Notes: a model not told the origin generated them from the letters alone. Shown: positions 32,501 through 64,000, counted from the first letter of the stretch. The stretch is DNA of 64,000 bases from Anaerolineae bacterium (GCA_041479245.1 JBGOXS010000001.1:77647-141646), one strand, 5' to 3'. Translations and numbers: made by a program.

Positions 32501-32734
32501 GATACTGTCGAGGGGTTGACTGTCACTCCGCTGGGTGAACAGCATTTCGGTATACCCCATGATGTTCCGGGCAACACTAACGATTCAGCCGGACTGGCTA
32601 TATACGATTTTGGTCCGTTCCCTGGCAATACATCTGAACTTGGTCTGATGCTAGTCACCAATGGTGACCGAACTCCCGGAGCCCGCGGTGGCGCGACACA
32701 GGATACTGAAGCGCTCCTGTTCACCGTACCTTAG
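29546..32734 (+). CDS. Secreted subtilisin-like serine protease (peptidase S8) with inserted PA domain
   Basis: Signal peptide MKRTILYALMALLMILSSASAAFAQ. Catalytic motifs are VAVLDSGIDYTH (Asp), GHGTHVAHIIGG (His), NMSLG (Asn) and GTSGAAPMVTGSAALL (Ser). The PA-like insert is GSLAGKIVLVNRGACNF. Confidence 0.92.
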   Translation: MKRTILYALMALLMILSSASAAFAQDGGPDRMAGRELPAKVEQLKLDTPIEINDFSANVLDSSLVGVEGPNKVIIQLSADSGAVAYEKGKDEAKAKNVAKVQQDAFLKDVKNVDSNARLLGRVQLVLNAVFVEVDASVLPQLAQDSRVVRIAPVANYEITLSETVPYIGATAVQAQGFTGKGIKVAVLDSGIDYTHIALGGSGNPADFANNNPDIIEPGTFPTTKVVGGYDFVGSNWPNVTPEAPDPDPLDKGTGAGHGTHVAHIIGGVGGVAPGVSLFAVKVCSSVSTSCSGIALIQGMEFAADPNGDGKVKDRVDLINMSLGSDYGQPFDDDLSLAVNNATKFGILTVASAGNGSDKPYVAGTPASAVTALSVAQTSVPSAFLPLMQVTAPASIAGNYPAVFQPWSAPLTAVVEAPLQYGNGTGGNNNGCAAFTAGSLAGKIVLVNRGACNFTLKIKNIADAGGLIGIIGLVAPGDPFEGGDGGDRPINIPGYMISQTNANKLMSGLPNTVVRFDPAIGIPLVKTVVGSSSRGPQHEDTTLIKPEIGAPGASVSAIFGTGTGEGPFGGTSGAAPMVTGSAALLLEGFGGTKTTGNGAASGKAIGHGLTPLEVKALLMNNAETNIINDTLTGALTPITRIGGGEVRVDRALAAPIVAWDKDVPTGALGFGFVDVADGVVTLTKTVVIRNLDNNKHTYSVTPTFRFADDVANGAVKVNAPSTVVVKSGIGKDTQFVVTLTIDGAKLRGNYMNSGSNGANPAALTLNEYDGYLLLDDGQHPIHLAWHVLPRKDARVVPDTTSFVPGSFPQVIGLNNTGVGHAQDDAYALLAVSPNIPQGAQGAQSPTPDIRAVGINTFPVAAGDCSDNPSFIWAFAINTWERQQHLLPVSHQVWLDTNRDGTDDYVVLNRDASGLNTITDGRQLAWVVNLADNSASALFYAEHSMNTGNTVLYICGEQVGLTGTDMLVTNVNMHVYTQDWYYGGPGDTVEGLTVTPLGEQHFGIPHDVPGNTNDSAGLAIYDFGPFPGNTSELGLMLVTNGDRTPGARGGATQDTEALLFTVP

Positions 32735-45200: not shown

Positions 45201-45843
45201 AGCAGACGCTTCTGTTTGGGAGCTGGCAAATAAAGGCATTACTGATGTTGACTTCCACCTCTCTGGGGCGATGACCAATAAATTGATGGCTGCTGGCGCA
45301 ACTCCTGCCAATCCATATACTTTAAAGATCTCAGATATGTTTGCCGGCATGCCCTACGAGAACAGCCTGGTTGTCATAAGCATGAATGGGCCTCAGCTTA
45401 AAGCAGTGCTGGAACGTGCTTACAGGAACTACTACTACTATAAGTATGTCACCGGCTATGGTGGCTATTCCTACTATACCACCTGCATGATTGACATAAA
45501 CTCAATCGGTGGAATTAGTTATATGGATACCTATCCTGCCTTGCCGAATGGCAATAATGTAAAGTATTTGATAATTAAGAACAAACATGTAGACTTCAAT
45601 GACTGGAGAACGTACTACAATGTCTCCACTGTGAACTACCTGGCAGCAGGGTCCTGTAACTTCAACGATAATGGTGTCAGCTTGTGGCCACTCAGCCAGA
45701 TAGTGCACGACACACAGTATTATGTCCGCGATGCAGTGATTGACTATATCAAATATAAGGGCATCGTGTCGCCTGCCATCGAAGGCCGGTTGTTTTTCTA
45801 TACGACTTTCTACCCATTATTCTTCCCATTAGTAGGGAGGTAA
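42244..45843 (+). CDS. Secreted tandem-duplicated 5'-nucleotidase/2',3'-cyclic phosphodiesterase-type enzyme (two metallophosphatase + 5'-NT_C modules)
   Basis: Signal-like N-terminus. Module 1 has ILHTNDFHGQLE, DAGDEMQGS, GNHEFDWG and GGHSH. Module 2 has ILHHNDSHGNL, DGGDQIQGD, GNHEFNYG and GAHSH. The protein ends in FYPLFFPLVGR. Confidence 0.88.
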   Translation: MRKKGFVTFLTFILLVAFIVPSGVLGATQGQDAAGTDSTITFTILHTNDFHGQLEANNADPTKASNPGMARTAKVINTIRADKGAANVLLVDAGDEMQGSLLSNLQQGAPTIATFSAMLYDVATFGNHEFDWGQSTLSTRTSEASYPYVSANIVVNDTANCATAGWTSPAFVTGGPYQVVTVGTAPNTVRVAFIGVTTTETPIITLASNTDGLCFKDPADSILHYYDSVKAISDVIVVLSHIGYTDGGYGYGIPVYGDQTLATKLNTAGKPVNLIIGGHSHTNLTAATTVGTTKVVQAYYNGRNVGQADFSFDTTTQAVTVDWSVISWKIPPTGSTTPFGWKKYSGTPPTPVDFLDATKDTAIDTLITNFANDPTYLTLINTPIGYSAVDLPRLGGTVDNMMGTFVDDAIYKYLNTDTEPINDVDIFFNNAGGIRTDWCLSGTAWTTTGCTTGLHAPTLLTYGNMFTILPFGNQTIVGDMTGAQILEVLNKGPQVSNGVIQPAGIKYKYFAYKDAVNPPGSASSPYLYAWGAFDYCVVNKSNSSQCDPLDLNKTYRVGTNEFLAPAGGDGYGGFKYMTNISYWGDMLNAVDNYVSAHYGTPATAYAGPTGDGSLDGRITRDGNDTSGSIVPLTILHHNDSHGNLTKGTFVGYTQLATLINQERLHNPTRTLLLDGGDQIQGDAMMYYFKSSYSGFAADGTPLPPTEVTNPMIAAMNSMNYDAMTLGNHEFNYGSAVFDGIFKQAQFPLLGANVSDAGAYGLATVGPGGEGVLPSISKTLDGIKIAILGITNHRVPNYELPSNIVGLTFSNPITTAAADIPSLRANNDVVIALTHIGFTTNPKSVEVDNNVDTNLAADVAGIDAIIGAHSHTNPASPETPYKQLPAYVSSPTNTPVIINQAYRYNNTLGEVILGVRSKAGGGFEVVSQAGQYISVTMSTPEDPAMKALLQPYVDTIAAYNNTVVGQTTVPIDTMLAFTQETNGANLQADASVWELANKGITDVDFHLSGAMTNKLMAAGATPANPYTLKISDMFAGMPYENSLVVISMNGPQLKAVLERAYRNYYYYKYVTGYGGYSYYTTCMIDINSIGGISYMDTYPALPNGNNVKYLIIKNKHVDFNDWRTYYNVSTVNYLAAGSCNFNDNGVSLWPLSQIVHDTQYYVRDAVIDYIKYKGIVSPAIEGRLFFYTTFYPLFFPLVGR

Positions 45844-46258: not shown

Positions 46259-49200
46259 ATGTACGTGAAACGAATATTCTATTTAACCATGGCGTTGGTG
46301 TTATTGGTTGGTATCATGCCGGTCGCAAGTTTAAGCCAGGCTGGTACCGAAATAGACTCTAACCCAACTGCAATCTTTTATGCTGCCGATGGCATGCGCC
46401 CGGATTTGATGGAGCGCTATGCTGCTGAAGGCAGCATGCCCACCTATGCCAGTTTAATGGATCAAGGTGTGAAAGGCGACAACGGTTTGGTACAAGCTTT
46501 TCCACCCAACACCGGGGTCGGCTGGTACACACTGGCTACCGGTGCCTACCCAGGCGAAGCAGGCTCAACCAACAATACCTTCTTCCGCTCCGGTGATGCT
46601 TCGTTCAACAACTCCACATCTTCATTCACCAACGGCATATTGCAGGCGGATACGATCCAGCAAGCCGCCGAGCGGGCCGGCAAAGTGGTAGTCTCGGTCG
46701 AATGGTCTGGCTCGCGCAACCTGGTACCGGCCCTTAATGGCCCTGTGGTGGATTACCGCACTTTCTTCTCCAATCGCGGCATCCTGCTGAATTATGACCT
46801 TCCCGGACAGCCTGCAGGCGCCAATGCCTTCGGCGTCAAGTACGAGCGTGTTGTTCTCGCCCTCGCCGCCGGTTGGACGAACGTCCCAACATCCTACAGC
46901 CCTGCTCAAGAGCAACAGCTGGATGTCGTTCCCTACGCTGCCGGACCGGCGAACGGCAAGTACGACCTGTACATCTACGATTCAACGAACGACGCTACGA
47001 CGAACTACGATCATGTGCTGGTTGTTCCAAACACCGCTGTGAAGGTTGGGAGCGCGGCGGTCGCTGATCTAATCGTTGGCGCGTGGGCCGACATCAAGGT
47101 TCAGGTCCAGTCTCCCGCTGGTAAGACCGGCGGATTCTACTTGAAGGCGATGGAGATTGCCCCGGACCTCTCGAAATTCCGGATTTACTTCACCTCGATT
47201 GCTCGGGCAAATGCAACCTACAATGCACTGGGCACGGCAGGGTCTGTAGCCTTCGAGGAAACCCTTAATGCCACTTTCCCGAGCGCGACTGGAGGCGACT
47301 ATGCTCCGCAGGAATCTGGAATTATCGACGATGCAACCTATGTCGAACAGGGATTGATGTGGAAGAACGCTCAGTGGGCATACCTGGATTTCATCATCAA
47401 CTCACTAAATGTAAAGCCTGACTTGTTGATGCTGGGAACTGCGACCACCGACGAATTCCAACACCAGTTCCTCGCCCTCACCGGCCCTGCCGTTGTCAAC
47501 GGAGTGCCTAATACGCACTTTGACCCCGTAAAAGCTCCGACCTATGATGGCTACCTGCGCCAGGCATATTCGGAGGCCGATGCTACCCTCGCCTTGGCGC
47601 GCTCACTCATGGGTGGGAATCCCACCATTGTTGCGACCTCAGATCACGGGTTCGGTGCCCAATGGGAGGCAGTCCAGGCCGGGAAGGTTCTATCCGACGC
47701 GGGGCTGCAGTCTCCTGAAGTGAGCAGCAACTGCCGCGCCGCCTCCGGCGCTACAGCGGTCAACCTGGCGAAGGCCTGCTGGGCAGGCGGAACGGCTCAG
47801 ATCTATGTAAATACCTCCCTTCCAGCTGGCACAACTTATGAACAGGTAAGAACAGCTGTGGTCAACGCCTTCCAGGGCTTGACCGATCCTGCCAACCCTG
47901 GCGCCCAGGTGGTTCTGAAAATCATGATGAAGGAAGAGCTGCGCAATGTCGATGGTTCTGACTCGCTGCATCCGAATCGCAGTGGCGATGTGGTGGTCGT
48001 GCTCAAGCCGCCTTACCAGTTCGACGCGGCGACCAAGGGCCAGACCATCGCCTTCAGCCAGTTCTACGGTCAGCACGGTTACATGCCGGAAATGGTCGAC
48101 CTTGCCAACAATGTGAACATGCATGCCACCTTTGTCGCCGCGGGTCCAGGTATTCGCCATCAGGGAGCTATAACCGGTGTTCGTGCCGTGGATCTCGCCC
48201 CGACGCTCTCCTTCCTGTTGAAGATCCCTGGCCCGATCAACGCTCGCGGCAAGATCCTCTATAACTTACTGCCCAATCCAGGGCAGTACAAGGAAGCGGA
48301 CATTCTATATATAAGTGACTTCCATGGGCAGATCACCCCACTATCTCAGACTGCTGATACTGTGGGTCCATCCTTCGCTATCGGTGGGGCTGCGTATCTA
48401 AAACCGTGGTTTGATTTATACCGCGGAGAAGCCACTGGAGGCGGGAATTACAGCGTTATCACCCTATCAGGTGGAGATACTGTCGGTGCCTCGCCACCCA
48501 TCTCGAACTTCTTTGGCGACCTACCTTCCATCTTTGCAATGAATGATATGGGCCTCACTGCCGATACACTCGGAAACCATAGCTTCGACCGCGGTTCTGA
48601 ATACCTGCGTACAGTGCTTATCCCGGCTTCGAACTATCCTTACCTGGCGTCAAACGTCGTTTTCCAATCGAATGGCAAGCTACCGCCACAGTGGATGGCT
48701 TCTCAGGTATATAACTTTGAAGGCTTTAAGCTGGGCGTCATCGGCTATACTCTGCCCGAGCTGGCAACCTTGATCTTCCCGGGATATCTCGACCCGTTCA
48801 AGGTTTCCCCGCCTGTAGCAGCGATCAATGCGGAAGCTCAGAGGCTGCTCTCAAAAGGGAAGGTCAATGCCATTATCGCCGTTGGGCATATTGGCGCAGA
48901 TGGAACGGATATCCTGAATCCACTCCCCACCAGCCCTTTGCTCGTTCTGGCAGATCAGCTAGTGGGCGTAGATGCAGTCTTTGGTGGTCATACCCACAGC
49001 GAGTACATCACCTACCGTCCCGATGGCAAGCTGGTAACGGAAGCCCCCAATGCAGGACTGCGTTTTAACCGCATCCGGCTGGTCATCGACACGAATACCA
49101 AGCGGGTGATTTATAAGACTGCCGATTTCCACAAGCCGTGGGATATCGGTGTGACCGCCGATCCTACCATCCAGGCGATGATCGACCAGCTGAACGCAAA

Positions 49201-49906
49201 ACTTGCGCCCATCTTCAGCATCGTTATAGGCAACTCAACCAGGTATATCCCACGAAGTGACGCTTGCGGCCGAGCGGATGGCCGGTTATGTGAATCACTA
49301 ATCGGTGATGTAACCACTGACGCTCTTCGCAAGACCTACAACACCGATTTTGCCATCGAGAACTCAGGCGGACTGCGCGCGAACCTGACCTGCGATTCTG
49401 GCGCTACCTTCTGCCCGACATACACCCCTCCACCTTACCCCATCTCGCGGGGGCAGGTACTGGCAGTGCTTCCGTTCGGCAACGTCGTCTTCACCGTATC
49501 TATCAATGGTGCCGAGCTGAAGACATTCCTGGAGAACGGAGTCTCGCTGATGCCGAGCGCTCAAGGCAGGTTCCCCCAGGTCTCGGGTCTGTGCTTCACC
49601 TATGATATCTCCGCTCCAGCGGGCAGCCGAGTCTTGAGTGCAGTACGCCAGGCTGCGGATGGGTCCTGTACCGGTGCACCGGTCGACTTGACAGCTTCCT
49701 CCACCTACACGATCGCAGAGAATGACTTCATGGCAACAGGTGGTGATGGCTATCTGAACGTTTATGCGCGCGGTACCACTCAGAACATCATGGACCAGGT
49801 ATTAGCAGACTACATCACAGCGAATACCCCCATCAGCCCTTTAATCCAGGGACGCATCGTATGCACTACAAGTGGAGCTACTGCCTGCCCAGTAGTGACA
49901 CCATAA
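46259..49906 (+). CDS. Secreted fusion protein: N-terminal alkaline-phosphatase-superfamily nucleotide pyrophosphatase/phosphodiesterase (NPP-like) + C-terminal 5'-nucleotidase (metallophosphatase + 5'-NT_C)
   Basis: NPP-like motifs are [38 protein letters not shown] and GQHGYMPE. The 5'-NT part has [31 protein letters not shown] and GGHTH. The GTG at 46265 has better SD spacing than the ATG at 46259. Confidence 0.85.
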
Positions 49907-53444: not shown

Positions 53445-54875
53445 ATGCATCGTGGATATGTCATCATTATTTTTCTGCTTCTGAGCTCCCTGGCTTGCGG
53501 TTTCTTTGGCACAGCCACTCAAACTCCACAGGTCATTAATTCTCCTGTTCCACAGAGCACATCTTCTCCGATTCCCCAGGTTACCACCACCCCGAAACCA
53601 GGCACTACCCAGGCTCCGGTTGCCCCGGGTACAGCTACATCCACTTCAGCACCGACCAAGACTCCCTACCCCACGTCTGTGCTGGATACATCCCTCACCA
53701 ACGAGATCAACCTGATCCAATCCCAGGTGATAAAGGAACGCGGCCTGCAGCTTAACCATCCGGTGCCGGTGGTGCTGCTTTCTCCCGATGAGCTGCACCA
53801 AAATACGATCAACGATTATCAGTCAGGTTACAATGATCAACAAGCTGCCGATGATGTGATCGAGCAATCAACCATTGGCCTAATAGAGCCCGGTTTTGAC
53901 TTGCGAGGATTCATGATCGAACTGCTCAGTGAGGAGGTTGCAGGTTATTATGATAATGAAACAAAGGAGATGTTCATCGTCCAGGGGCAGGGGTTCCAGG
54001 GACCGGAGCGCCTGACCTATTCGCACGAGTTCACGCATGCTCTTCAGGACCAGAACTACGATATCCAAAATGGGCTTAACTTTAACGATAATTCCTGTAA
54101 AGTGGATACCGAACGTTGCGCTGCTATTCAAGCGTTAATAGAAGGAGACGCCACACTATCTCAGACGTTTTGGTACCAGAATTACGCCACAAATCTGGAT
54201 CAAAAGCAAATTATTGACTTTTACGATTCTTTTAAAAGCCCGGTCTTAGACAGTGCACCGGCATACCTGAAGGAGGATTTCGTCTTTCCTTATAACCAGG
54301 GCGCGACGTTCGTCCAGGATATCTATAATCAGGGCGGCTGGCCAGCTGTGGACGCGGTTTACCAGAATCCACCGGTTTCCACCGAACAAATCTTGCATCC
54401 CAATCTCTACACCTACGACGAGCCCATCCCGGTGACTTTACCCGACCTGACCAACTCCTTGGGGGAGGGTTGGCGAGAGTCTACGCGCAACCAAATGGGT
54501 GAATGGTCTACCTACCTGATCTTGGCGCGCGGAGTTAATGAAAAGGCTCGCCTGGATGACAACACCGCCCAGTCTGCCGCGGCAGGTTGGGGTGGTGATA
54601 ATTACGTCGTACTCCACAACGATGCCACAGGTCAGACAGCCTTCGTGATGGAGAGCGTTTGGGATACCTCCAACGACGCAGCCGAGTTCGCTTTTGCTTT
54701 CGAGAAATATGCCGATGCCCGCTATGGGGTAACCTCTACCAAGCAGGGCAATACCTCCACCTGGACCTATGATGTTGGCGTAACCACCTTATATCTTTCG
54801 GGAGATACCACGATTTGGATCACCGCCCCCGATCCAGCATCGATCCAGACGCTTACTGGTTTAGTCCAGCCCTAG
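53445..54875 (+). CDS. Lipoprotein with HExxH motif (putative secreted zinc metallopeptidase)
   Basis: Lipobox LLSSLACG, a Pro/Thr/Gln-rich linker, and YSHEFTHALQDQ (HExxH). No further family assignment was possible by eye. Confidence 0.55.
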   Translation: MHRGYVIIIFLLLSSLACGFFGTATQTPQVINSPVPQSTSSPIPQVTTTPKPGTTQAPVAPGTATSTSAPTKTPYPTSVLDTSLTNEINLIQSQVIKERGLQLNHPVPVVLLSPDELHQNTINDYQSGYNDQQAADDVIEQSTIGLIEPGFDLRGFMIELLSEEVAGYYDNETKEMFIVQGQGFQGPERLTYSHEFTHALQDQNYDIQNGLNFNDNSCKVDTERCAAIQALIEGDATLSQTFWYQNYATNLDQKQIIDFYDSFKSPVLDSAPAYLKEDFVFPYNQGATFVQDIYNQGGWPAVDAVYQNPPVSTEQILHPNLYTYDEPIPVTLPDLTNSLGEGWRESTRNQMGEWSTYLILARGVNEKARLDDNTAQSAAAGWGGDNYVVLHNDATGQTAFVMESVWDTSNDAAEFAFAFEKYADARYGVTSTKQGNTSTWTYDVGVTTLYLSGDTTIWITAPDPASIQTLTGLVQP

Positions 54876-54880
54876 TATTA

Positions 54881-56485
54881 TTATTTCATATAGTCTGACC
54901 ACCGGTCAAGCCAGCGTCTTTCTACCAGGCGGGTATCTTCCTCAGACATCCGCCTGGTTGCTTCTTCGAATGAGATTGAGTTGCCCATCACCGGCTGTGA
55001 ATAATTTTCTCCCTCATAATTGATCAGCGACTCATTCGAGCGCATCTCCATGCTGCCCTGAGTATAAAACAGGCAGGTTGCACGGTCTCCTTTCTCAAGC
55101 TGCAGCTCATCCCCGATCGACTTAAACGCGATGGCATGTGGTCCGTTGAATTTCATCGCGTCTGCAGCGCAAAATAGAGCGATGCCTCCGTATGGCATCT
55201 CCAGCTTGCGGTGTCTGCCTGCCACCACTACTCCTCCCCGCATTACTGACCCTAGGTCTGTGATGGTCGTATCGACCAGCAGCGAATCGCGGATATCCGC
55301 TCCTGTGGCGATAGAGCTGCGTACAATAATATTCCCTCTGCGGTCGCGTTCATGCGGCAGCTGGAACAGCTCTCGCAGGGTTATACCTTGCTCCGAATCC
55401 GTGGTCATAGCTTCCAATGAGCGCCTCAAGCTGAGGTGCAGCCCCCAATCCATCCAGAACGGTTGGCCGAAATCCAGAACCTTGATCATCGGCTGCCTAC
55501 CGTGCCGCTTGTGGAAAAGGGTCCGCATTTCTTCGATTTTATGGTAAAAATTCGGCAGGCGCATCTCCAGCTCACGGATCCCGTTTTTACCGATCTGCTG
55601 TTCAAAGGCTGCTTCTGCGCTCCACTCTGCTTCGCTCCGGCAGGCTAATGCAATCCAGGTATACGGGTCCCAATCCACCCACTTACCTTCTGCGGGAACC
55701 TCCTCCTTAAAGACCTCTTCAGCCACTTCCATCAAGCGGTAGCTGATCCCCAGACTGCCAAGGTTGACACCGATCAGCCTGTCCTGCCCACGGCCTGCTA
55801 ACCTCTTTCGCAGTCCATCCAGTGCTTGCCTGGTGAACTGGTAGGTCATTTGGTAGGTACGAGCGTCGAACTCCACCCACTCCTTCTCACGTGCCAGGTC
55901 TTCGGTGGGCTCCGTCTGCCACACAAAACGGATCCCATCGACGTCCTCGTAACTGGTAGCACCGTCGGCCCAGATTTTCCCCGGGATGACTGCCTCATCT
56001 CCCCATTTGATCACCATGCCGCGGAAGCCATTGGTTTCCAAGTGGTGCAGCCACAGCGTGGCAGACATGGAAGCTGCATCCACCGTACAAAGGAATACCT
56101 CTCCATTGGAGGCACACATCGGCGTCGGAAATGCTGGCTTTCGGTTCGTCAGCGCCTGTGTGAATGGGCTCAACCGCTTACCCTGCCCAAACACCATGTT
56201 CATCAAAATCACCGGCGGTTTTGCCTTACCCTGCAGGGCTTGCTGTATCGCCAGCCAGGCATTGACGCTGCCCAAGAAATTGCCCTTCCGGGATGTCTCC
56301 TGGCTGGAGATGATCATCGTATCCCCATCAGCCCTGAATACATCCTGGGCTGTCTTCTGCAGTCTGTCTTGCCAGTAATCCCGGTCTGCTGTGCTACCCG
56401 AGACCACGCTGACTACTCTGGGTCCCTGGTTTGTCTCAATGATGTCGCGGTACTTGCGGATATTGGTTTGCCACATCTCAGACAT
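54881..56485 (-). CDS. Hypothetical cytoplasmic protein (possibly fucokinase-N-terminal-like sugar-nucleotidyltransferase with a beta-helix C-terminus)
   Basis: 534-aa ORF. The N-terminus RVVSVVSGSTADRDYWQDRL...SRKGNFLGSVNAWLAIQQAL loosely resembles the start of fucokinase/FKP-type proteins as I remember them. This is a weak call. Confidence 0.35.
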   Translation of the reverse strand: MSEMWQTNIRKYRDIIETNQGPRVVSVVSGSTADRDYWQDRLQKTAQDVFRADGDTMIISSQETSRKGNFLGSVNAWLAIQQALQGKAKPPVILMNMVFGQGKRLSPFTQALTNRKPAFPTPMCASNGEVFLCTVDAASMSATLWLHHLETNGFRGMVIKWGDEAVIPGKIWADGATSYEDVDGIRFVWQTEPTEDLAREKEWVEFDARTYQMTYQFTRQALDGLRKRLAGRGQDRLIGVNLGSLGISYRLMEVAEEVFKEEVPAEGKWVDWDPYTWIALACRSEAEWSAEAAFEQQIGKNGIRELEMRLPNFYHKIEEMRTLFHKRHGRQPMIKVLDFGQPFWMDWGLHLSLRRSLEAMTTDSEQGITLRELFQLPHERDRRGNIIVRSSIATGADIRDSLLVDTTITDLGSVMRGGVVVAGRHRKLEMPYGGIALFCAADAMKFNGPHAIAFKSIGDELQLEKGDRATCLFYTQGSMEMRSNESLINYEGENYSQPVMGNSISFEEATRRMSEEDTRLVERRWLDRWSDYMK

Positions 56486-56714: not shown

Positions 56715-57494
56715 TCAAGCTTTCTTCCCCGTGACTGAAAATAATTCATCTTCCGCAGAGGCTGGATGGAGGGTGAACCCTTTATAGATGAAAATATCCA
56801 CGAGCCCCGCATTCATATAGAGATCACGGGCTTGTTGTTGAGTATATTCCCTGGTGGCAGAAGAACGTTTGTGGTGCTCCTCAGCAATGATGACTTCGTC
56901 CTTCAGTAATTCAAACCGGTCTTCGGTATGCTCTAATTGGGTTTCCGGGTCATACCGGCTACGAGTCCAGCGTTTAATCAGTACCCCGTCATCAGGTCGT
57001 ACTTTTTCTCCGTTGAGGTGCCAGGAGCTTAAGAGCGGTTCACCACGCCTCCAAAGCAGCATGAAAGGCATCACCAGGCTTCCACCGGGTAGCAAGTGTG
57101 CACGCAGATTCAAGATCGCTTTGTTCGCATCCTCAGGGTCCAATACCAGCTGGAAGCTGCTGGATGGGACGATGATCGTCCGGTAGCATCGTGGCAAATG
57201 CATGGAGACCACGTCGCTCTCAAACACTATCGGCTTAAGCTGCATCGAATCAGCTTTCTGGCGGCACAAATCAAGCATTTCAGGGGATATATCCACCCCA
57301 TCCACATCTACAACCTGAGAGAGGTAATCCAGCAACAGTCTTCCAGTCCCGCAGCCCACGTCGAGCGCAGGCTGACCTGATTCACGGATCATCTCCAGGT
57401 AAAAGACACGGTCCTCCCAGCCCGAGGTATCGCCGCGTAGGAGATCCCATGTGTGCGCCAACATTCCATGATACTCATACTTCGGTTCTGCCAT
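56715..57494 (-). CDS. Class I SAM-dependent methyltransferase
   Basis: Motif I ALDVGCGTGRLLLDYL, a post-I acidic residue (VDGVDIS), and LLPGGSLVM. Its start overlaps the ecfT stop region by 20 nt. Confidence 0.85.
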   Translation of the reverse strand: MAEPKYEYHGMLAHTWDLLRGDTSGWEDRVFYLEMIRESGQPALDVGCGTGRLLLDYLSQVVDVDGVDISPEMLDLCRQKADSMQLKPIVFESDVVSMHLPRCYRTIIVPSSSFQLVLDPEDANKAILNLRAHLLPGGSLVMPFMLLWRRGEPLLSSWHLNGEKVRPDDGVLIKRWTRSRYDPETQLEHTEDRFELLKDEVIIAEEHHKRSSATREYTQQQARDLYMNAGLVDIFIYKGFTLHPASAEDELFSVTGKKA

Positions 57495-58560
57495 GGGACG
57501 CCCTCCTGCGTGCTTTCAAATCAAGCTTTTCATGGGTTGATTTAAAATGCGCAAATACCCCAGGCAGCAGCAATCCAAGCATCGCCATCCCAAGCAGCGG
57601 GCTGAAAGGGGGCAAGCTGAGAGTTGGGTAAGGATCATAGAATAAGGTCTGATTAATCGGCTCCAGCATAGGGAGAATACAAATAGCCATTACAACCAGC
57701 GATACCAGCATGTTCAGCCAGTCCTGCCAACCCCACCCTGGGCTGTGATATGACGTGCGCGGTGATTCTCTCCCCAGGAACCACAATCCCCCAAAAATCA
57801 ATAGTGCTCCTGAGACGATTATAGCCAATCCATACACACCCGCGCCACCCAGCTGTGCAATCCATCCAATCGCCAGCAGAACCAGCCCGATGATTAAGAA
57901 AATCCGGGGGGTAATTCCGCCGCGCTGTTCGCCAGGTCTCGTGCTGGCAAACCCACGCGCCGTCATAGCTTCAGCCAGCTGCATGGCGTGTTCGAGCCCG
58001 CCCACCAACAAGGGCATCCATAGCGGCAGCCAATCCCGCAGCGTCCGCATTTGGTGACCCCGTATACCCTGCGCTTCGCGGATTTGTCTGAATTGGCGTA
58101 AGGTGGTAGGCAGGTAGGTGACTGCAATCGACGTCACCACTGCCAGGGGGAAGAACGCTTGTGGGATCAGGCTGATCAGTTCACGTACGGTGAGTGCCAG
58201 GTTCAGCACCATGAAGCTCGCCAGTATACCGGTAAGTACCAGCCCATTCGTAAATCCATACACCATGGCTTCCATCGTCACTGGTCCGCTTAGAAGCGGC
58301 AACTTGCCTGGGATAGTGAACAGCACCGTCTGGCCATAGTGCGAGGTCAGGGCATTGAACGCCGTGGATAACAGAAGGATCCATGCAGCCAATTTCCATA
58401 ACGAATATGGGCTGACCGTCTCCGCTCCTGACTGCCGCAGGCTCATTCCAACAAAGATCACGCACATCAGGATGAGCAGCAGGTACAGCGGGTTACGTGT
58501 GATCGAAAGGATCACGATCGTTGCAATCAACCAGCTTACCCACGCCCAGGGTTGTTTCAT
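57475..58560 (-). CDS. ecfT: ECF transporter transmembrane (T) component, CbiQ/EcfT family
   Basis: Multi-TM protein with the coupling-helix Ala-Arg-Gly motif (LAEAMTARGF) and REAQGIRG. It overlaps the upstream S-component gene by 4 nt. Confidence 0.8.
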   Translation of the reverse strand: MKQPWAWVSWLIATIVILSITRNPLYLLLILMCVIFVGMSLRQSGAETVSPYSLWKLAAWILLLSTAFNALTSHYGQTVLFTIPGKLPLLSGPVTMEAMVYGFTNGLVLTGILASFMVLNLALTVRELISLIPQAFFPLAVVTSIAVTYLPTTLRQFRQIREAQGIRGHQMRTLRDWLPLWMPLLVGGLEHAMQLAEAMTARGFASTRPGEQRGGITPRIFLIIGLVLLAIGWIAQLGGAGVYGLAIIVSGALLIFGGLWFLGRESPRTSYHSPGWGWQDWLNMLVSLVVMAICILPMLEPINQTLFYDPYPTLSLPPFSPLLGMAMLGLLLPGVFAHFKSTHEKLDLKARRRASHGRTEV

Positions 58561-59429
58561 GGGATCAATTTATCTCCCTGCCTGACTGTAACCGCGCTTG
58601 TCTCGGGTGTGTATGTGAACTCGAAACGATGGCGGAATCGGCGTAATGCGCGTAATGCCGGTGCCCCAAGCGCCAATAACAACAGCACGTTCCCAAAGGC
58701 AGCTACTGCATCCCATACCAGTGAGGTGACCAGGTAGAAAGCCAGGTAGTGACGCACGGTCGCCAGGAATCCCATCCCGGCAGCATAAGATTGACTTTGC
58801 GGTCCAGCGATGAACGGCCACTGCCACAGATTCATAATCCCGCCATATAAGAAGCCCCACAGCAATCCAAAACCAGCCAGCAGGTAGATTTCCATCCGAT
58901 TGCTTAAGAAGGATCCCTGCGCTCTCCTTGCCGATAACGCGGTGACCAATGGCCGTAGGATGATGACACTCATACCCACCCAACCGGCAGTGAACATCTG
59001 GGCCGGCAGCCATGGTCCCACACCTCCTGTCACCAGCGCTGATACCAGCAAGGTGAGAGCACCCATCAGAAATCCCGCTCTGCCGCCGAAAACGTACCCC
59101 ACCAGGATGATCAAGAAAAAGATGGGAGTAAATCCACCCGGTCCCGGAATAGCCGTCTCGATAAATCGCAGAGCAGAGTTGATCGCCACCAAAATCCCCA
59201 GCAGAGCGACTAGCTTGGTGTTTACCATCTGTCCCTGGGCTTCGAACAACAGTGCCACCAGGCACAAGCCTAGCAAGAATGTCATCATCAGCGGCATCTC
59301 GCCTGTTCGCATCATACCAAATCCCGTCTGCCGTAGGATGACCGGCAGAAAGAATGGATATAGCAGAACCAGCATCCCTGAGATTGTGGCGGTGAGATAA
59401 ATCGCCAGGCTGAACAAACGGGATTTCAT
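58557..59429 (-). CDS. Polytopic membrane protein, probable ECF substrate-capture (S) component
   Basis: 290 aa with 7-8 hydrophobic segments. Placed between the transcobalamin-like gene and ecfT in one tightly packed operon. The assignment rests on context rather than on a motif. Confidence 0.55.
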   Translation of the reverse strand: MKSRLFSLAIYLTATISGMLVLLYPFFLPVILRQTGFGMMRTGEMPLMMTFLLGLCLVALLFEAQGQMVNTKLVALLGILVAINSALRFIETAIPGPGGFTPIFFLIILVGYVFGGRAGFLMGALTLLVSALVTGGVGPWLPAQMFTAGWVGMSVIILRPLVTALSARRAQGSFLSNRMEIYLLAGFGLLWGFLYGGIMNLWQWPFIAGPQSQSYAAGMGFLATVRHYLAFYLVTSLVWDAVAAFGNVLLLLALGAPALRALRRFRHRFEFTYTPETSAVTVRQGDKLIP

Positions 59430-59474
59430 TGGACGCTTAGTCCTCTAGACCGGCAGACATCGGGTAAATCGCCA

Positions 59475-61070
59475 TCATTTCCTGCGCGAGCGGAACAGGT
59501 AGATGATCAGCACACCCAGTACCAGCAGGATTGAAGCATACACTATATAACTGCCCGGTGTATTTCGCGATCCTGCAGGCACTGGTGTTGCGATTGGAGG
59601 TAGTGTGGCTGAGGCGATCGTCGCTACCGCGGTGGGCTCCGGAGTGCCTGTTGGAGGGGCTGAAGTTTGAGTTGAAGTGGGCAGAACGATCGCCATGCCC
59701 TCGCAGGTGTTCTGGAAAGTGATCAATGCCGGCGGATTTCCCGTCCCCCAGCTCCAGGCATTCACGGCGCCATCCGTCACCTTGGCCTGGTCGGCACCCG
59801 TCACGGAATACTCCCAACCGTTCGCACCCATTTGCCAGTACGACCAGTAATTCGGCATACTGCCAAAGCAGTCGCTGGATGGGCTGCCCACCCCATCAAT
59901 TTTACACACCGCTGTCCCCTTGTTAGGGTCAGTCGCGGTTTGAATCGCCAGATCTGAGCGCTCAAGCAGCTGCAGTCCGGTTAGTGCGCTATCGGTAAAG
60001 CTCACGCAGGTGGTGAAATAGCTGTCCTCCCCGTAATAGATCACCAGTCCGGCTTGATGGTTGGCTGACGGGTTTGCCAGGTTGGTAAGTGGGATTCCCA
60101 CAAGCCCAATAATTGCTTCGGCGGTGCTGTAAGCGTTGGCGTAGGTACCACCGATTGATCCATCCGGCTTCTGCAAGCTCATCAGTGCATCCAATGGGTT
60201 GGCTAGCTTCGTGTTCCAGCTTTGACCACGGATATCTTCTCCTGCGGAGATCAATGCTTCCAGGATCCATCCGGTTGAATCGGCATTGAGTGGGTCGGTA
60301 TCCCAGGAAGGCTTCCAGCCACCGCTGGGTGCCTGCGTGTCATGAAAATATTGGATCGCTCTCTTGATGACTTCACCCTGATTGGTCACATTCCCGCTTG
60401 CCATCAGGGCGCTTACTGCCAGAGCAGTCGTATCTGGGTCACCTGCTCCCCAGCTGCCATCGCTAGCTTGGGATTGGATCATGTAATTGACCGCGGATTC
60501 AGGTACTTTACGACCATCGATGCCAAGCCCCAGAGTAGCCCATGCCTGGCTCAGGTCGCTGGCAGCGCCGCTGCTGAATTCTGACTTGGCTGTGGTGCTA
60601 TAGGCGCCAGTATCAGGGTGGAAACTCGTTTCCAGCTCTCCTGCCAGATTCATCCCTCCGAAACCTGAGGCATCTTCGCCCGCAAGCTTGACTGCCGCAA
60701 TAAGCAGGCCCGCCCGACCAGGGAATAATGTGCCCGTTGTATCATGGGTGAACGTGATTGCCTGTGCTGCCAGGTAATCCAGCATTGAGTTACCCGCTGA
60801 GGAAGCCATTTCACGCGGCGATTTCCCCGCTGCGTTGAATGCGATCACGCTTCTGGCGGTCATGTCGGGGTCGGATACACCGCTGAAACCATTCATGCCC
60901 CCATCTGGCTGTTGCTGGGTCTGAAGGTAAGTAATCCCTGATTCAATCACAGCCGCCTGATTTGGGACGGCCTTGGCTTGTGCTGTGCCATATTGGAATA
61001 AGAGTAGCAATCCTATGACCAAAAATAGACCACTGGAAAATGAAATAAACACTGCGATCTTTTTTCTCAT
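59475..61070 (-). CDS. Membrane-anchored transcobalamin-like protein: prenyltransferase/alpha-alpha-toroid repeats + DUF4430 (transcobalamin-like C-terminal) domain + C-terminal TM anchor
   Basis: N-terminal signal/TM. The QxxDGGW-type repeats are LQTQQQPDGGMNGF, QSQASDGSWG, HDTQAPSGGWKP and LQKPDGSIGG. The DUF4430-like block is CKIDGVGSPSSDCFGSMPNYWSYWQMGANGWEYSVTGADQAKVTDGAVNAWSWG. A Pro/Thr linker and the TM anchor IVYASILLVLGVLIIYLFRSRRK follow. Confidence 0.7.
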   Translation of the reverse strand: MRKKIAVFISFSSGLFLVIGLLLLFQYGTAQAKAVPNQAAVIESGITYLQTQQQPDGGMNGFSGVSDPDMTARSVIAFNAAGKSPREMASSAGNSMLDYLAAQAITFTHDTTGTLFPGRAGLLIAAVKLAGEDASGFGGMNLAGELETSFHPDTGAYSTTAKSEFSSGAASDLSQAWATLGLGIDGRKVPESAVNYMIQSQASDGSWGAGDPDTTALAVSALMASGNVTNQGEVIKRAIQYFHDTQAPSGGWKPSWDTDPLNADSTGWILEALISAGEDIRGQSWNTKLANPLDALMSLQKPDGSIGGTYANAYSTAEAIIGLVGIPLTNLANPSANHQAGLVIYYGEDSYFTTCVSFTDSALTGLQLLERSDLAIQTATDPNKGTAVCKIDGVGSPSSDCFGSMPNYWSYWQMGANGWEYSVTGADQAKVTDGAVNAWSWGTGNPPALITFQNTCEGMAIVLPTSTQTSAPPTGTPEPTAVATIASATLPPIATPVPAGSRNTPGSYIVYASILLVLGVLIIYLFRSRRK

Positions 61071-61100
61071 AATGTACTCCTGATTCGACCTTAAAATTAT

Positions 61101-61134
61101 AAAAACAAAACCCCTGTCGCTTTTTGGACAGGGG
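61101..61134 (-). terminator. Intrinsic terminator forming the putative riboswitch expression platform
   Basis: The minus strand reads cccctgtc-caaaaagc-gacagggg-ttttgttttt, about 30 nt upstream of the RBS (ggagtacattATG) of the 59475-61070 gene. Confidence 0.75.
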
Positions 61135-61139
61135 TGAAA

Positions 61140-61346
61140 ATCATGCGGGCGGGGATAAGCATGCGTTCACATCTCCTATGAGCGAGGCGGTGGTGAACCC
61201 AACTTGGGCGGGCGACCTGGCTGGGGAATAGATCCCTTACAGTTGCGCTACAGCGCCGGACTATGTACCAACTTCAATTACCGGCTTCGCCTTTAAGCCA
61301 TCCCATCCGGGGGATATGGCACTCAAGCTGGAAAATATTCAATTGT
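61140..61346 (-). promoter_or_regulatory. Candidate cobalamin (B12) riboswitch aptamer
   Basis: The minus strand contains AAAGGCGAAGCCGGTAA...TCCGGCGCTGTAGCGCAACTGTAAGGG (compare the consensus GGGAAnnnGGTGnAAnnCC...CCGCnACTGTAA). It also contains the B12-box-like AGCCAGGTCGCCCGCC (plus 61207-22). It lies between a promoter and a terminator upstream of a B12-binding-type gene. Confidence 0.65.
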
Positions 61347-61352
61347 GAACAT

Positions 61353-61381
61353 ATTTTATACCGCTAAGATAGTTGCGTCAA
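61353..61381 (-). promoter_or_regulatory. Sigma-70-type promoter driving the riboswitch operon
   Basis: On the minus strand: TTGACG (plus 61376-81), a 17-nt spacer, then TAAAAT (plus 61353-58). Confidence 0.55.
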
Positions 61382-61459: not shown

Positions 61460-62035
61460 CTATGACTTGTGCGTATGTTTCTTACTCACCAGGTCAGCAG
61501 CGGCGAAACCTGCCGATAACGCCGACTTATTCATCTCTTCGGTACCTTTCGGAGCCCGCGCTGCTACCGCCTGGGTGATCGCCTGCCGTGAAACGACGTC
61601 GGTGAGTCCCACCAGCACCCCTAGGGCAACTACATTCGCCGTTATGCTTTTACCGCTGCTCTCTTGTGCTAATCGTGTGATCGGCACCTTGATCGCCCGG
61701 CTGGATGGCACCCTACCCACTCTTTCCTGATCCACGATCAACAAGCCGTCCTTCTTCAGGTTACCGGCATATTTATCGCAGGCTTCCTGGCTCATCGCCA
61801 CCAATACATCCGCAACGATCACCTCCGGGTGGTCGATCTCACCCTGTGAAATCACCACCTCGGCTTTACTGGCTCCACCACGAGCCTCTGGTCCATAGCT
61901 CTGGGTTTGGGTGGCATTCTTGTTATCATAGATTGCCGCTGCTTCTGCCAGGATAATGCCTGCAAGGATCATCCCTTGACCGCCCTCACCCGCTAGCCTG
62001 ATTTCCATCCGATTACCGTTCTTCTTGGTCGCCAT
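61460..62035 (-). CDS. 2-oxoacid:ferredoxin oxidoreductase gamma subunit
   Basis: MEIRLAGEGGQGMILAGIILAEAA... is the typical POR/KOR gamma N-terminus. It follows the beta subunit. Confidence 0.88.
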   Translation of the reverse strand: MATKKNGNRMEIRLAGEGGQGMILAGIILAEAAAIYDNKNATQTQSYGPEARGGASKAEVVISQGEIDHPEVIVADVLVAMSQEACDKYAGNLKKDGLLIVDQERVGRVPSSRAIKVPITRLAQESSGKSITANVVALGVLVGLTDVVSRQAITQAVAARAPKGTEEMNKSALSAGFAAADLVSKKHTHKS

Positions 62036-62052
62036 TGATCGTCTCCTTCGGG

Positions 62053-62901
62053 CTATACCGGTTTGGGAGCCTGGGCTGCCTGTACTCTTTGGATTAACTC
62101 TTCATACTGTTCGGTGTATTCCGGCTTTTCGATGTCGTGCATAACCCCGCGCACAATTTTCGTTTCACGCTCTTCAGGAGACAATTTCTCGGCCGCACTG
62201 GCAGTGACGCTGTTTTCCTTCAGCTGACGCATCATATCTACCGTGGAGCCGAGTTTGTTCATCCTGCCGAAAGTCGTCGGGCAGTAGCTCACTGCTTCCA
62301 CCAGGCTGAAGCCATTCTTGCGAATTGCCTGTTCAATGAACCGGTCTAGCTCGACCGCATGATAGACCGTGCTGCGCGCCACATACGTTGCCCCGGCCGC
62401 TTTTGCTAGCTCGCAAATAGGCATAGGGGGTTCAATATTGCCATAAGGTGCCGTCGCAGCCTTTGCGCCGATGGGTGTTGTTGGGCTGTACTGCCCTCCC
62501 GTCATCCCATAGATGTTATTGTTGACAACAATGGCTGTGATACCAATATTCCGCCGGGCGGCATGGATAAAATGATTGCCGCCAATGGCCATGGCATCCC
62601 CATCCCCCATAATGGTGATCACTTTCATCTTCGGTTTGGCGATTTTTAGCCCCGTTGCGAACGCCAACGCCCGGCCATGTGTGGTGTGGATGGTGTTGAA
62701 ATCCATATACACCGGCATGCGACCGGTGCAACCAATCCCCGAAACTAACGCTACATCATCCTTATCCAGCCCGATTCGGTCTATCGCTCTGATCAAAGCC
62801 CCCATCACGATGCCTATCCCACATCCGGCGCACCACACATTGGGGAACTTCTTGGTGGGTCGTAAGTACATATATTCGGTATGTTCAGCTTGTGTCGTCA
62901 T
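62053..62901 (-). CDS. 2-oxoacid:ferredoxin oxidoreductase beta subunit (TPP-binding)
   Basis: WCAGCGIGIV, SGIGCTGR and the TPP motif IMGDGDAMAIGGNHFIHAARRN. Confidence 0.9.
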   Translation of the reverse strand: MTTQAEHTEYMYLRPTKKFPNVWCAGCGIGIVMGALIRAIDRIGLDKDDVALVSGIGCTGRMPVYMDFNTIHTTHGRALAFATGLKIAKPKMKVITIMGDGDAMAIGGNHFIHAARRNIGITAIVVNNNIYGMTGGQYSPTTPIGAKAATAPYGNIEPPMPICELAKAAGATYVARSTVYHAVELDRFIEQAIRKNGFSLVEAVSYCPTTFGRMNKLGSTVDMMRQLKENSVTASAAEKLSPEERETKIVRGVMHDIEKPEYTEQYEELIQRVQAAQAPKPV

Positions 62902-62903
62902 AG

Positions 62904-64000
62904 TTACCTGTCTTCAATTGCTTCGAGGATCATTTGGGGTGTGACCATCTCACCGTTGGCTCGATTTACCCTTACCACCTTATTTCGCCCGGCAACCCGT
63001 TCCACCTCCAGGGCTATCTGACCCAGGTTCATTTCAGGGACGATAATCCGTTTGGCGGTTTTTGCCACCCGGCTGATCTCATCTTCAGCAAATGGCCATA
63101 AGGTCAGCAAGGTGACCATCCCGACCTTGGTGCGCCGCTGGCGTGCCATCTTGACCGCGTGACGTGCGCTGCGTGCCGATGCACCATAAGTGACTACGAC
63201 AGTCTTGTCATTTTCAGAACAATCCTCTTCAACCATAATGATCTCGTTTAGATTTCGCTCGATCTTGCGGTGCACCCGCTCGATCCAGGGATCAATCTCA
63301 TCCAGGCGTGTAGTTGGATAACCCAATACATCATGGAACAAGGCAGTGATATGGTAGCGGTATCCCTCGCCAAAATTCGCCATGGGTGGCACATCGCTCA
63401 ACGAATCACCATAGGGCTTGTACCATTCGGGTGGCACATCCGTCGCAATACGCTCCACTCGCTCAACCGTATCGAAATCTGGCAGCTCGATCTTCTCACG
63501 CATGTGTCCGATCACCTCATCGGTTAACAATATCACGGGTGTGCGGTATTTCTCAGAAAAATTAAAGGCCTTCACCGTCAGGTCAAACGACTGGCTGACC
63601 GACACCGGGCAGAGGACAATAATCGGATGGTCACCATGTGTGCCCCAGCGTGATTGCATTACGTCACCCTGCGAAGCGCTGGTAGGTTGCCCGGTGCTGG
63701 GTCCCAGACGTTGTACATCCACAACCACCACAGGCACCTCGGTCATGGCAGCATAACCGATATGCTCCTGCATCAGCGAAAATCCCGGGCCTGAAGTTGC
63801 CGTAAGCGATTTTAAACCCCCCACCGATGCGCCGATACAAGCCGCCAAGCTGGCAATCTCATCTTCCATCTGGATGAACTTCCCACCCACCTTGGGTAGT
63901 TCTCTAGATAACATCTCTGCAATTTCTGTGGAAGGGGTAATGGGGTAGCCAGCATAGAATTTACATCCCGCCGCAATCGCTCCCCACCCAACCGCTTCAT
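62904..64000 (-). CDS. 2-oxoacid:ferredoxin oxidoreductase alpha subunit (5' end outside window)
   Basis: The frame stays open past the track's Met at 63914. Upstream codons read ...EAVGWGAIAAGCKFYAGYPITPSTEIAEMLSRELPKVGGKFIQMEDEIASL, a classic KorA/PorA N-terminal region. Confidence 0.9.
   Translation of the reverse strand, partial: EAVGWGAIAAGCKFYAGYPITPSTEIAEMLSRELPKVGGKFIQMEDEIASLAACIGASVGGLKSLTATSGPGFSLMQEHIGYAAMTEVPVVVVDVQRLGPSTGQPTSASQGDVMQSRWGTHGDHPIIVLCPVSVSQSFDLTVKAFNFSEKYRTPVILLTDEVIGHMREKIELPDFDTVERVERIATDVPPEWYKPYGDSLSDVPPMANFGEGYRYHITALFHDVLGYPTTRLDEIDPWIERVHRKIERNLNEIIMVEEDCSENDKTVVVTYGASARSARHAVKMARQRRTKVGMVTLLTLWPFAEDEISRVAKTAKRIIVPEMNLGQIALEVERVAGRNKVVRVNRANGEMVTPQMILEAIEDR

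Follow-up and report, generated by a model that had tools for sequence, protein, structure and literature searches.

A riboswitch-controlled operon of Anaerolineales with a predicted transcobalamin-like protein and an S-T transporter pair, probably for corrinoid capture and uptake

In defining the SLBB superfamily, Burroughs et al. (2007; PMC1796856) described bacterial proteins, mostly secreted or anchored, in which a transcobalamin-like SLBB domain is joined to an alpha/alpha toroid. They often come together with a paralogous SLBB protein and with genes for CbiQ and CbiO, and a role in scavenging B12 or its precursors was proposed. The Lsa1836-1840 system of Lactobacillus sakei comprises an energy-coupling factor (ECF) S component, a fused A-A' ATPase, a T component and separate proteins resembling the alpha and beta domains of transcobalamin (TC); without lsa1836-1840, heme uptake was impaired, a defect that complementation repaired (Verplaetse et al., bioRxiv 10.1101/864751). 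Furthermore, ECF-CbrT of Lactobacillus delbrueckii is a characterised ECF-type B12 transporter (PMC5997447), and BtuM, a solitary S-component-like protein, imports B12 without any ECF module (PMC6072759). In this study, we examined an operon on the minus strand (56715-61381) of a stretch of 64,000 nt from an Anaerolineae bacterium (GCA_041479245.1, JBGOXS010000001.1:77647-141646), the whole of which is here called the window. It comprises a cobalamin riboswitch leader and genes for a predicted TC-like protein (here named protein 1), an S component, a T component and a methyltransferase.

For comparison, 45 related loci (labelled L001 to L045) were collected and their gene content was tabulated. 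We consider it probable that the locus is a B12-repressed corrinoid capture-and-uptake operon of Anaerolineales (Chloroflexota) whose ATPase is provided in trans. The riboswitch, the TC-like fold, the S-T pair, the linkage to PduO and CobS in relatives and the prediction of 2007 all support corrinoid uptake. The probabilities that we attach to this reading and to the alternatives discussed below are not mutually exclusive.

Riboswitch leader and candidate capture protein

ORF calls placed four packed minus-strand genes behind the leader. The first two are 45 nt apart, the second and third overlap by 4 nt and the third and fourth by 20 nt. The leader, with a length of ~275 nt, contains the following features:

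61353-61381, minus strand: sigma-70-like promoter TTGACG-17-TAAAAT, 10 of 12 consensus positions (consensus match only)
61190-61341, minus strand: cobalamin riboswitch aptamer, RF00174 (clan CL00101), by Rfam covariance model
61100-61135, minus strand: intrinsic terminator, hairpin with the 9-bp stem ACCCCTGTC/GACAGGGGT and a T-run
61077-61081, minus strand: putative ribosome-binding site AGGAG, 6 nt 5' of the ATG of protein 1, read from the sequence

The RF00174 match extends over the full model (positions 1-189) with 46.6 bits at E = 1.6e-8, the gathering score being 31.5; both the core GCAACUGUAAGGG and the B12 box AGCCAGGUCGCCCGCC lie within it. Each of the 13 related loci tested, with protein 1 identities of 33-78%, also has a cobalamin-clan riboswitch 5' of its homologous operon; 12 match RF00174 and one RF01689. 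In an alignment of the 13 aptamers, 18 of the 34 predicted pairs had undergone double compensatory change, mostly in the closing stem of the aptamer and in one distal stem. The terminator stem (61135-61110) has 9 bp, including six GC pairs, and is followed by TTTTGTTTTT. A hairpin with a T-run is kept in the leaders of 23 of 26 relatives, 46-89 nt 5' of the start codon, with compensatory changes in the stem of L017 and unrelated stem sequences in L027, L028 and L031. The natural reading of a riboswitch combined with a conserved terminator would be an OFF switch acting through transcription termination.

An earlier note on this DNA had proposed the promoter, a cobalamin-riboswitch leader that was to stand or fall with the covariance model match and covariation, a clean terminator and four tightly packed or overlapping genes, all of which were recovered here. 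The leader is longer than the ~200 nt given at that time, and promoter-like sites of such quality are not rarer than expected by chance (six found versus 4.9 expected in shuffled sequences).

The first gene of the operon encodes protein 1, for which the following parts were assigned:

59475-61070, minus strand: protein 1, 531 aa, candidate membrane-anchored TC-like corrinoid capture protein (ORF, AlphaFold2 model, Foldseek)
60975-61070, minus strand: Sec-type signal peptide, aa 1-32 (RKK, hydrophobic core, AQA; helix 2-28 in the model)
60075-60965, minus strand: alpha/alpha toroid with prenyltransferase/terpene-cyclase-like repeats, aa 36-332 (Pfam, model, Foldseek)
59691-60065, minus strand: TC-beta-like SLBB (beta-grasp) domain of the SCO2322 type, aa 336-460 (isolated-domain model, Foldseek, NCBIfam)
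59478-59690, minus strand: Pro/Thr-rich linker and C-terminal transmembrane helix with RSRRK tail, a predicted membrane tether, aa 461-531 (model, sequence)

The signal peptide is presumably cleaved. An AlphaFold2 model of protein 1, built from 40 homologues, has a mean predicted local distance difference test score (pLDDT) of 79.9. It shows a toroid of 12 helices (pLDDT mostly >90), a disordered stretch at residues 465-507 (pLDDT <50) and a following helix at 505-530. Pfam SQHop_cyclase_C matched the toroid in four stretches (E = 2.3e-10). In a Foldseek search of the PDB with the full-length model, the best 14 matches were all TC or intrinsic factor (E from 4e-11 to 9e-9), with alignments that span 425-457 columns and thus cover both domains of protein 1. 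Terpene cyclases ranked behind and were aligned to the toroid only (~300-370 columns). When the beta domain was modelled alone (pLDDT 78.6), the top 19 PDB matches were all beta domains of TC, haptocorrin or intrinsic factor, or 3U7Z, a DUF4430 protein of Ruminococcus gnavus (template modelling [TM] scores 0.72-0.77); at rank 20, the match probability falls sharply. For the beta domain of human TC (5NP4/5NO0), the TM score was 0.72-0.73 with a root mean square deviation (rmsd) of 2.6 Å over 108 columns.

The models of protein 1 show a toroid followed by an SLBB beta-grasp domain with a hairpin insert. The toroid, the C-terminal transmembrane anchor (helix 505-530, RSRRK tail) and the two-domain logic of TC and intrinsic factor, as proposed earlier, are therefore borne out by structure prediction, the last of them at the level of the fold. 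We conclude that protein 1, as modelled, is a transcobalamin look-alike in fold and architecture.

Relationships to curated families are more distant. The NCBIfam model SCO2321_fam (NF053823) scored 58.7 bits at aa 211-311 against a cutoff of 300, and SCO2322_fam (NF040672) scored 24 bits at aa 408-444 against a cutoff of 85 (E = 4.2e-5). PF28005 (SCO2322) is annotated, in part weakly, on many homologues of protein 1, though not on those of the nearest cluster. Judged from these scores, protein 1 appears to be a distant relative of the SCO2321 and SCO2322 families and not an equivalog. We found 270 homologues, and nearly all of the named ones are from metagenome-assembled genomes (MAGs) of Anaerolineales or Anaerolineae. 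Protein 1 has no cysteines other than Cys355, Cys389, Cys401 and Cys456; all four are invariant residues of the beta domain, in keeping with extracellular disulfides.

Transporter components and the missing ATPase

The second and third genes encode the membrane components:

58557-59429, minus strand: ECF transporter S component, 290 aa (Pfam PF12822)
57475-58560, minus strand: EcfT/CbiQ T component, 361 aa, with a C-terminal membrane extension of ~155 aa (Pfam PF02361)
57949-58083, minus strand: EcfT coupling-helix motifs IREAQGIRG (aa 160-168) and LAEAMTARGF (aa 195-204), by alignment
57478-57942, minus strand: family-specific EcfT extension, aa 207-361, hydrophobic, with a conserved Y-x-P-Y-P...P-x-F motif

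Both assignments, which had already been made in the earlier note, lie above the Pfam cutoffs: PF12822 matched the S component with 34.9 bits (cutoff 30.7; E = 2e-8) and PF02361 the T component with 45.5 bits (cutoff 25; E = 9.3e-12). In relatives, the S component always adjoins protein 1 and the T component (44-88% identity). It showed no sequence match to any PDB chain, including the CbrT complexes; EcfT chains in the PDB matched the T component at E = 6e-4. In ECF transporters, the two Arg-Gly coupling motifs of EcfT dock EcfA/A'. Among 17 T proteins from operons with and without an ATPase, both motifs (IREAQxxRG and LAEAMTARGF) vary little or not at all. The C-terminal extension is likewise common to the whole family, whether or not the operon carries an ATPase, and may contact the capture protein.

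No ABC (ATP-binding cassette) ATPase is encoded at the locus in ~20 species of the window's Anaerolineales clade, the genomes of relatives being viewed within ±10 kb around the operon. Nor does the 64-kb window contain one, so that the two ABC ATPase domains of an ECF module are missing from both. Two ORFs of the window with a Walker A motif were rejected as ABC ATPases: one encodes a STAND AAA_16-TPR protein, the other a Mg-chelatase/ComM-like protein. The family in general does include an ATPase. Deeper Chloroflexota operons encode one or more toroid proteins, one or two SCO2322-type proteins, S, T and a protein of 534-564 aa with two ABC_tran domains, in this order, and a fused double ABC ATPase is present in the family operons of L027, L028, L031, L032, L036, L043, L044 and L045. 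Since fused EcfA-A' follows straight after EcfT in these deeper relatives, its lack in the window's clade is a derived loss in one clade and not a design feature of the family. The absence of EcfA/A' pointed out earlier thus holds for the locus and the window, and not for the family at large.

Protein 1, S and T of the ATPase-less clade are not decaying. For protein 1, the ratio of nonsynonymous to synonymous substitutions (dN/dS) is 0.09-0.21; S shows 0.07-0.13 and T 0.13-0.27, i.e., purifying selection throughout (0.07-0.27). Together with the retained coupling motifs, this is an indirect sign that EcfT may still be the docking site of an ATPase from elsewhere in the genome, and supply of the ATPase in trans to the S-T pair would, on these sequence patterns, be the likeliest arrangement.

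Alternatively, the S-T pair and the tethered capture protein might import corrinoids without any ATPase, as a facilitator that obtains its direction from high-affinity capture outside and trapping or adenosylation inside, comparable to solitary BtuM or solitary BioY. The lack of an ATPase throughout the clade's loci and in the window, the persisting purifying selection on protein 1, S and T and the ability of BtuM to support B12 uptake without an ECF module (PMC6072759) are consistent with this. So is a homologue search with the ATPase of L028, which gave 7,998 matches: among the best 120 listed, all at least 64% identical, none was on the large contigs of the clade, so that these matches gave no sign that an orthologue of the fused ATPase had moved there. 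We nevertheless regard ATP-independent import as distinctly unlikely. EcfT is kept, and the invariance of both ATPase-docking motifs in the clade is hard to explain without ATPase binding, whereas BtuM-type systems lack EcfT altogether (PMC6072759). Moreover, the absence of an ATPase covers ±10 kb per genome and the best 120 of the 7,998 matches.

In several relatives, genes for corrinoid metabolism are found beside the operon. A PduO-type cob(I)alamin adenosyltransferase gene directly follows the operon ATPase in L043 and L045, and CobS is encoded near the operon in L043, L027 and L028, which ties the family to corrinoid salvage. The window itself and the flanks fetched for its clade contained neither PduO nor CobS. 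The positions in these loci are:

L043, 9809-10378 and 11924-12592: PduO and CobS genes
L045, 9667-10230: PduO gene
L027, 16311-16898: CobS gene
L028, 6600-7151: CobS gene

Several observations weigh against a corrinoid uptake operon with an ATPase in trans. The only homologous system studied experimentally, Lsa1836-1840 of L. sakei, is tied to heme and not to B12. Neither PF14478 (DUF4430) nor PF01122 (Cobalamin_bind) matched protein 1 at E ≤ 10; DUF4430 matched only two of 23 beta-domain homologues (best E = 0.17), and a beta-domain profile run against PDB sequences returned noise and no PDB sequence. The global rmsd to ligand-bound TC is ~22 Å, so the predicted domain orientation of protein 1 differs. 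Minimum free energy folding of the leader was not significant (z = -0.59) and defined no antiterminator. Furthermore, no ATPase partner was recovered at the locus, in the window or among the best 120 listed matches of the homologue search described above. In the literature, we found no report that tested B12 binding by a bacterial TC-like protein, and no binding or transport data for the protein 1 family.

With no meaningful Pfam match at E ≤ 10 in the protein, its C-terminal third or the 23 homologues, DUF4430 membership at the sequence level, as claimed earlier for the second domain, was rejected; the domain is of the SCO2322 type (PF28005/NF040672), a structural relative of DUF4430. PF01122 was seen once among the relatives, in L036, at an E value of 0.0096, a match that stays below the cutoff of this family.

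The findings in L. sakei raise the question of whether the ligand is heme or another tetrapyrrole and not a corrinoid. The uptake defect of the lsa1836-1840 deletion and its complementation (bioRxiv 10.1101/864751) speak for such a ligand, as does the undetectable sequence similarity to cobalamin-binding families, and the crevice between toroid and beta domain could in principle hold other macrocycles. Against this stand the cobalamin-clan riboswitch 5' of the operon in every one of the 13 loci tested and the link to the PduO adenosyltransferase and CobS in relatives; in the window's clade, no iron or heme gene or regulator adjoins the operon. We therefore consider heme or another tetrapyrrole a highly improbable ligand.

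For corrinoid uptake with an ATPase in trans, the reading that we favor, we propose the following sequence of events. Under sufficient supply, cobalamin would bind to the aptamer and the downstream terminator would stop transcription, and the operon would be transcribed when B12 is scarce. Once exported, protein 1 would be tethered through its C-terminal helix and flexible Pro/Thr stalk to the outer side of the cytoplasmic membrane, where it could trap a corrinoid between the toroid and the beta-grasp domain, as transcobalamin does, and hand it to the S component. The S component would then dock on EcfT, topple and release the corrinoid into the cell. In the wider family, this release step would be powered by the fused EcfA-A' encoded after EcfT, and in the window's clade an ATPase encoded elsewhere in the genome may serve the S-T pair. 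The methyltransferase is best placed outside this transport machinery, as a putative co-transcribed and dispensable accessory.

The methyltransferase slot

The last gene of the operon encodes a class I methyltransferase (here named type A), and a second type (type B) occurs in relatives:

56715-57494, minus strand: type-A class I S-adenosylmethionine (SAM)-dependent methyltransferase, 259 aa, facultative accessory (Methyltransf_25, E = 8.4e-16)
L006, 8233-9018 (strand not stated): type-B methyltransferase (Methyltransf_11)
L008, 13602-14387 (strand not stated): type-B methyltransferase (Methyltransf_11)
L010, 13616-14389 (strand not stated): type-B methyltransferase (Methyltransf_11)
L017, 13923-14684 (strand not stated): type-B methyltransferase (Methyltransf_11)

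No NCBIfam family matched type A at its cutoff. The best scores were those of a daptide methyltransferase (66.8 versus a cutoff of 175) and CpaM (44.4 versus 180); UbiE/MenG, CbiT and others scored lower still, and the matches to CpaM and CbiT are generic. The sequence thus points to a generic class I SAM-binding fold and to nothing more specific. Type B is a second class I methyltransferase of 261 aa. BLASTP detects no similarity between the two types (E = 0.47), and type B is likewise not identified by any curated family.

The slot after ecfT holds an intact type A gene in L037 (92% identical), L041, L010, L011, L014, L015, L016 and L019, and L033 contains it as frameshifted pieces that cover the full length. 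In a scan of species representatives, seven loci carried it at 62-72% identity. Truncated remnants are present in L013, L017, L018, L020 and L022, and among the fetched loci L001/L009, L002, L007, L012 and L021 showed no trace of it. Since type A was found in the seven loci of the scan, in L037 and in L041, a recent insertion specific to the window was rejected, and the remnants in relatives indicate that type A is ancestral. It is not exclusive to the operon either: a 60%-identical homologue is encoded in an unrelated neighbourhood in L039. Type B occupies the slot after ecfT alone in L006 and L008. Both types are present in L010, with the gene order T-B-A, and in L017, where T is followed by the type-A remnant and an intact type B.

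Taken together, at least one intact methyltransferase gene follows ecfT in 13 of 21 informative loci of the clade and none in eight, so that the association with the operon is recurrent but dispensable. The occurrence of two unrelated methyltransferases in one slot indicates that the association is not random. The 20-nt overlap of the methyltransferase start with ecfT, as noted before, is confirmed by the coordinates. The ensemble of uptake genes and methyltransferase held up in part when its synteny was checked: type A is intact after ecfT in about half of the clade and absent or decayed in about 40% of the close relatives.

A methyltransferase that acts as a working partner, modifying a corrinoid after its import, a precursor of it or the base that forms its lower ligand, would turn the operon into an uptake-plus-tailoring module and would be compatible with the model favored here. 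The apparent translational coupling to ecfT through the same 20-nt overlap in the window, L037 and L041, the intact type A in the window and nine relatives and the presence of type B in the slot (L006, L008) or beside type A (L010, L017) are in line with this idea, as two independent families in one slot are unlikely to result from chance. However, type A has left no trace in five close relatives, has decayed in four (L013, L018, L020 and L022) and persists as a remnant in L017 beside the intact type B. In the nearest pair (window versus L037), type A is under relaxed selection, with a dN/dS of 0.60 compared to 0.10-0.27 for its neighbors. The homologue in the unrelated neighbourhood of L039, the lack of a methyltransferase in the operons of the ATPase-bearing relatives and the generic family matches also speak against a partner in corrinoid handling, which we regard as doubtful.

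Genomic neighbourhood and comparison with known systems

Marks of the window's clade are the 2-oxoacid:ferredoxin oxidoreductase genes on the upstream side, the 534-aa and DUF8575 genes on the downstream side, and a protein 1 that is both fused and anchored. The neighboring genes in the window are:

61460-63914 and beyond, minus strand: gamma, thiamine pyrophosphate-binding beta and alpha genes of a 2-oxoacid:ferredoxin oxidoreductase (POR), directly 5' of the riboswitch
54881-56485, minus strand: X534, 534 aa, 229 nt downstream of the methyltransferase gene and on the same strand
53445-54875, plus strand: secreted protein of 476 aa with a Thr/Pro-rich N terminus, convergent with X534
29546-32734, 34748-39931, 42244-45843 and 46259-49906, plus strand: very large genes, presumably for secreted enzymes

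The oxidoreductase genes hold the same place throughout the clade (84-95% identity). X534 has no Pfam, NCBIfam or PDB sequence match, is 68-85% identical across the clade and has a dN/dS of ~0.10. No terminator-like site was found between the operon and X534. Its orientation is reversed in L023, and L024 lacks it, so it is probably a neighbor and not a member of the operon. Since X534 has the same size as the ATPase of relatives and lies downstream, where the ATPase would be, it was considered as a degenerate ATPase and rejected: BLASTP against the L028 ATPase gave an E value of 2.9, and X534 contains neither a Walker A nor a signature motif and lacks any Pfam or PDB match. The 476-aa protein gave no match in the Pfam version used, and its orthologues are recorded as DUF8575; an HEFTH motif suggests that it may be a zinc metalloprotease. 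The cluster of large genes encodes two subtilases, one of them with 1727 aa and Kelch and PKD repeats, and two proteins of ~1200 aa with 5'-nucleotidase C-terminal domains, one with metallophosphatase domains and the other with a phosphodiesterase domain. This suggests extracellular scavenging of protein and of nucleotides or phosphate.

In deeper relatives, the capture function is divided among a large toroid protein and two stand-alone beta-domain paralogues of the SCO2322 type. The toroid protein of L031 has 1210 aa and contains Big_1/invasin Ig-like domains. The respective genes are:

L028, 12135-12791 and 12795-13922: split capture genes
L031, 13489-14229 and 14246-15790: split capture genes
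L031, 9836-13468: split capture gene, of the length expected for the toroid protein

Genes broken over several frames (protein 1, T and X534) were observed in the long-read MAG loci L033 (throughout the locus), L010, L018, L019, L022 and L023. These are probably assembly frameshifts and not pseudogenes, and gene fragmentation in those loci was therefore treated with caution.

Corrinoid capture by monoderm and other non-proteobacterial bacteria is poorly characterized, and our literature search found only ECF-CbrT and BtuM as biochemically characterized membrane systems of such type. Protein 1, as a compact single chain under unambiguous B12-riboswitch control, would lend itself to expression, could settle the question of the ligand and is a good candidate for a first biochemical test of bacterial TC-like proteins. 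The clade-wide loss of the ATPase in cis with retained EcfT motifs is a natural experiment on whether T components share or dispense with ATPases, and the methyltransferase slot, which is filled again and again without being essential, offers a lead to an uncharacterized step of corrinoid handling. More tentatively, and in our view rather unlikely, the clade may keep a riboswitch-controlled S-T pair and a tethered receptor without an ATPase of their own as an arrangement beyond groups I and II, with the vacated slot repeatedly taken by two unrelated methyltransferase families. If this were true, a private S and T would borrow the ATPase of another module or act in ATP-independent import, and the two methyltransferase families would be a hint that corrinoid acquisition is coupled to a methylation, for example one that tailors the cofactor or its lower ligand. 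In any case, the locus extends a known design and does not overturn current understanding.

Our literature search, which had limited reach into subscription papers, found no description of the Chloroflexota version, of the ATPase-less arrangement or of the methyltransferase slot. The earlier remark that no characterised equivalent of the ensemble is known overlooked both the prediction of 2007 (PMC1796856) and Lsa1836-1840 of L. sakei (bioRxiv 10.1101/864751). Like mammalian TC, intrinsic factor and haptocorrin, protein 1 combines an alpha6/alpha6-type toroid with a following beta-grasp domain. In contrast to these carriers, it is predicted to be membrane anchored, shares only 10-15% identity with them, lacks a Cobalamin_bind or DUF4430 match and differs in the modelled orientation of its domains (rmsd ~22 Å).

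ECF-CbrT resembles the proposed system of the window in its ECF-type uptake, takes up cobalamin and cobinamide through its S component, and is encoded in an nrdJ-cbrS-cbrT-pduO cluster that is paralleled by the PduO linkage in L043 and L045 (PMC5997447). However, CbrT uses a shared group II EcfAA'T module and, as described, has no toroid/beta-domain capture protein (PMC5997447), whereas the T component of the window is dedicated to its operon and the A component is missing. With BtuM (PMC6072759), the system shares a presumably B12-related S-type membrane protein in a setting without ECF ATPases, for the present operon within the 64-kb window. BtuM organisms lack EcfT as well, whereas the window's EcfT is kept with intact coupling motifs.

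The L. sakei system likewise combines EcfS, EcfT and extracellular proteins resembling the alpha and beta domains of TC. It differs from the window in its fused EcfA-A', in its separate alpha-like and beta-like proteins and in its experimentally demonstrated heme uptake; its description (bioRxiv 10.1101/864751) mentions no B12 riboswitch, whereas the operon studied here is riboswitch controlled and has no ATPase. The systems predicted in 2007 (PMC1796856) share with the window's operon a secreted or anchored toroid with a TC-type beta-grasp domain, encoded together with a CbiQ-like membrane protein, and their stand-alone paralogous SLBB proteins recur in the relatives L028 and L031. They differ in that the fused single chain of the window is tethered by a C-terminal transmembrane helix and not by a sortase motif, and in that the window's locus lacks a CbiO-like ATPase. 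The ensemble is thus a lineage-specific variant of the system predicted in 2007.

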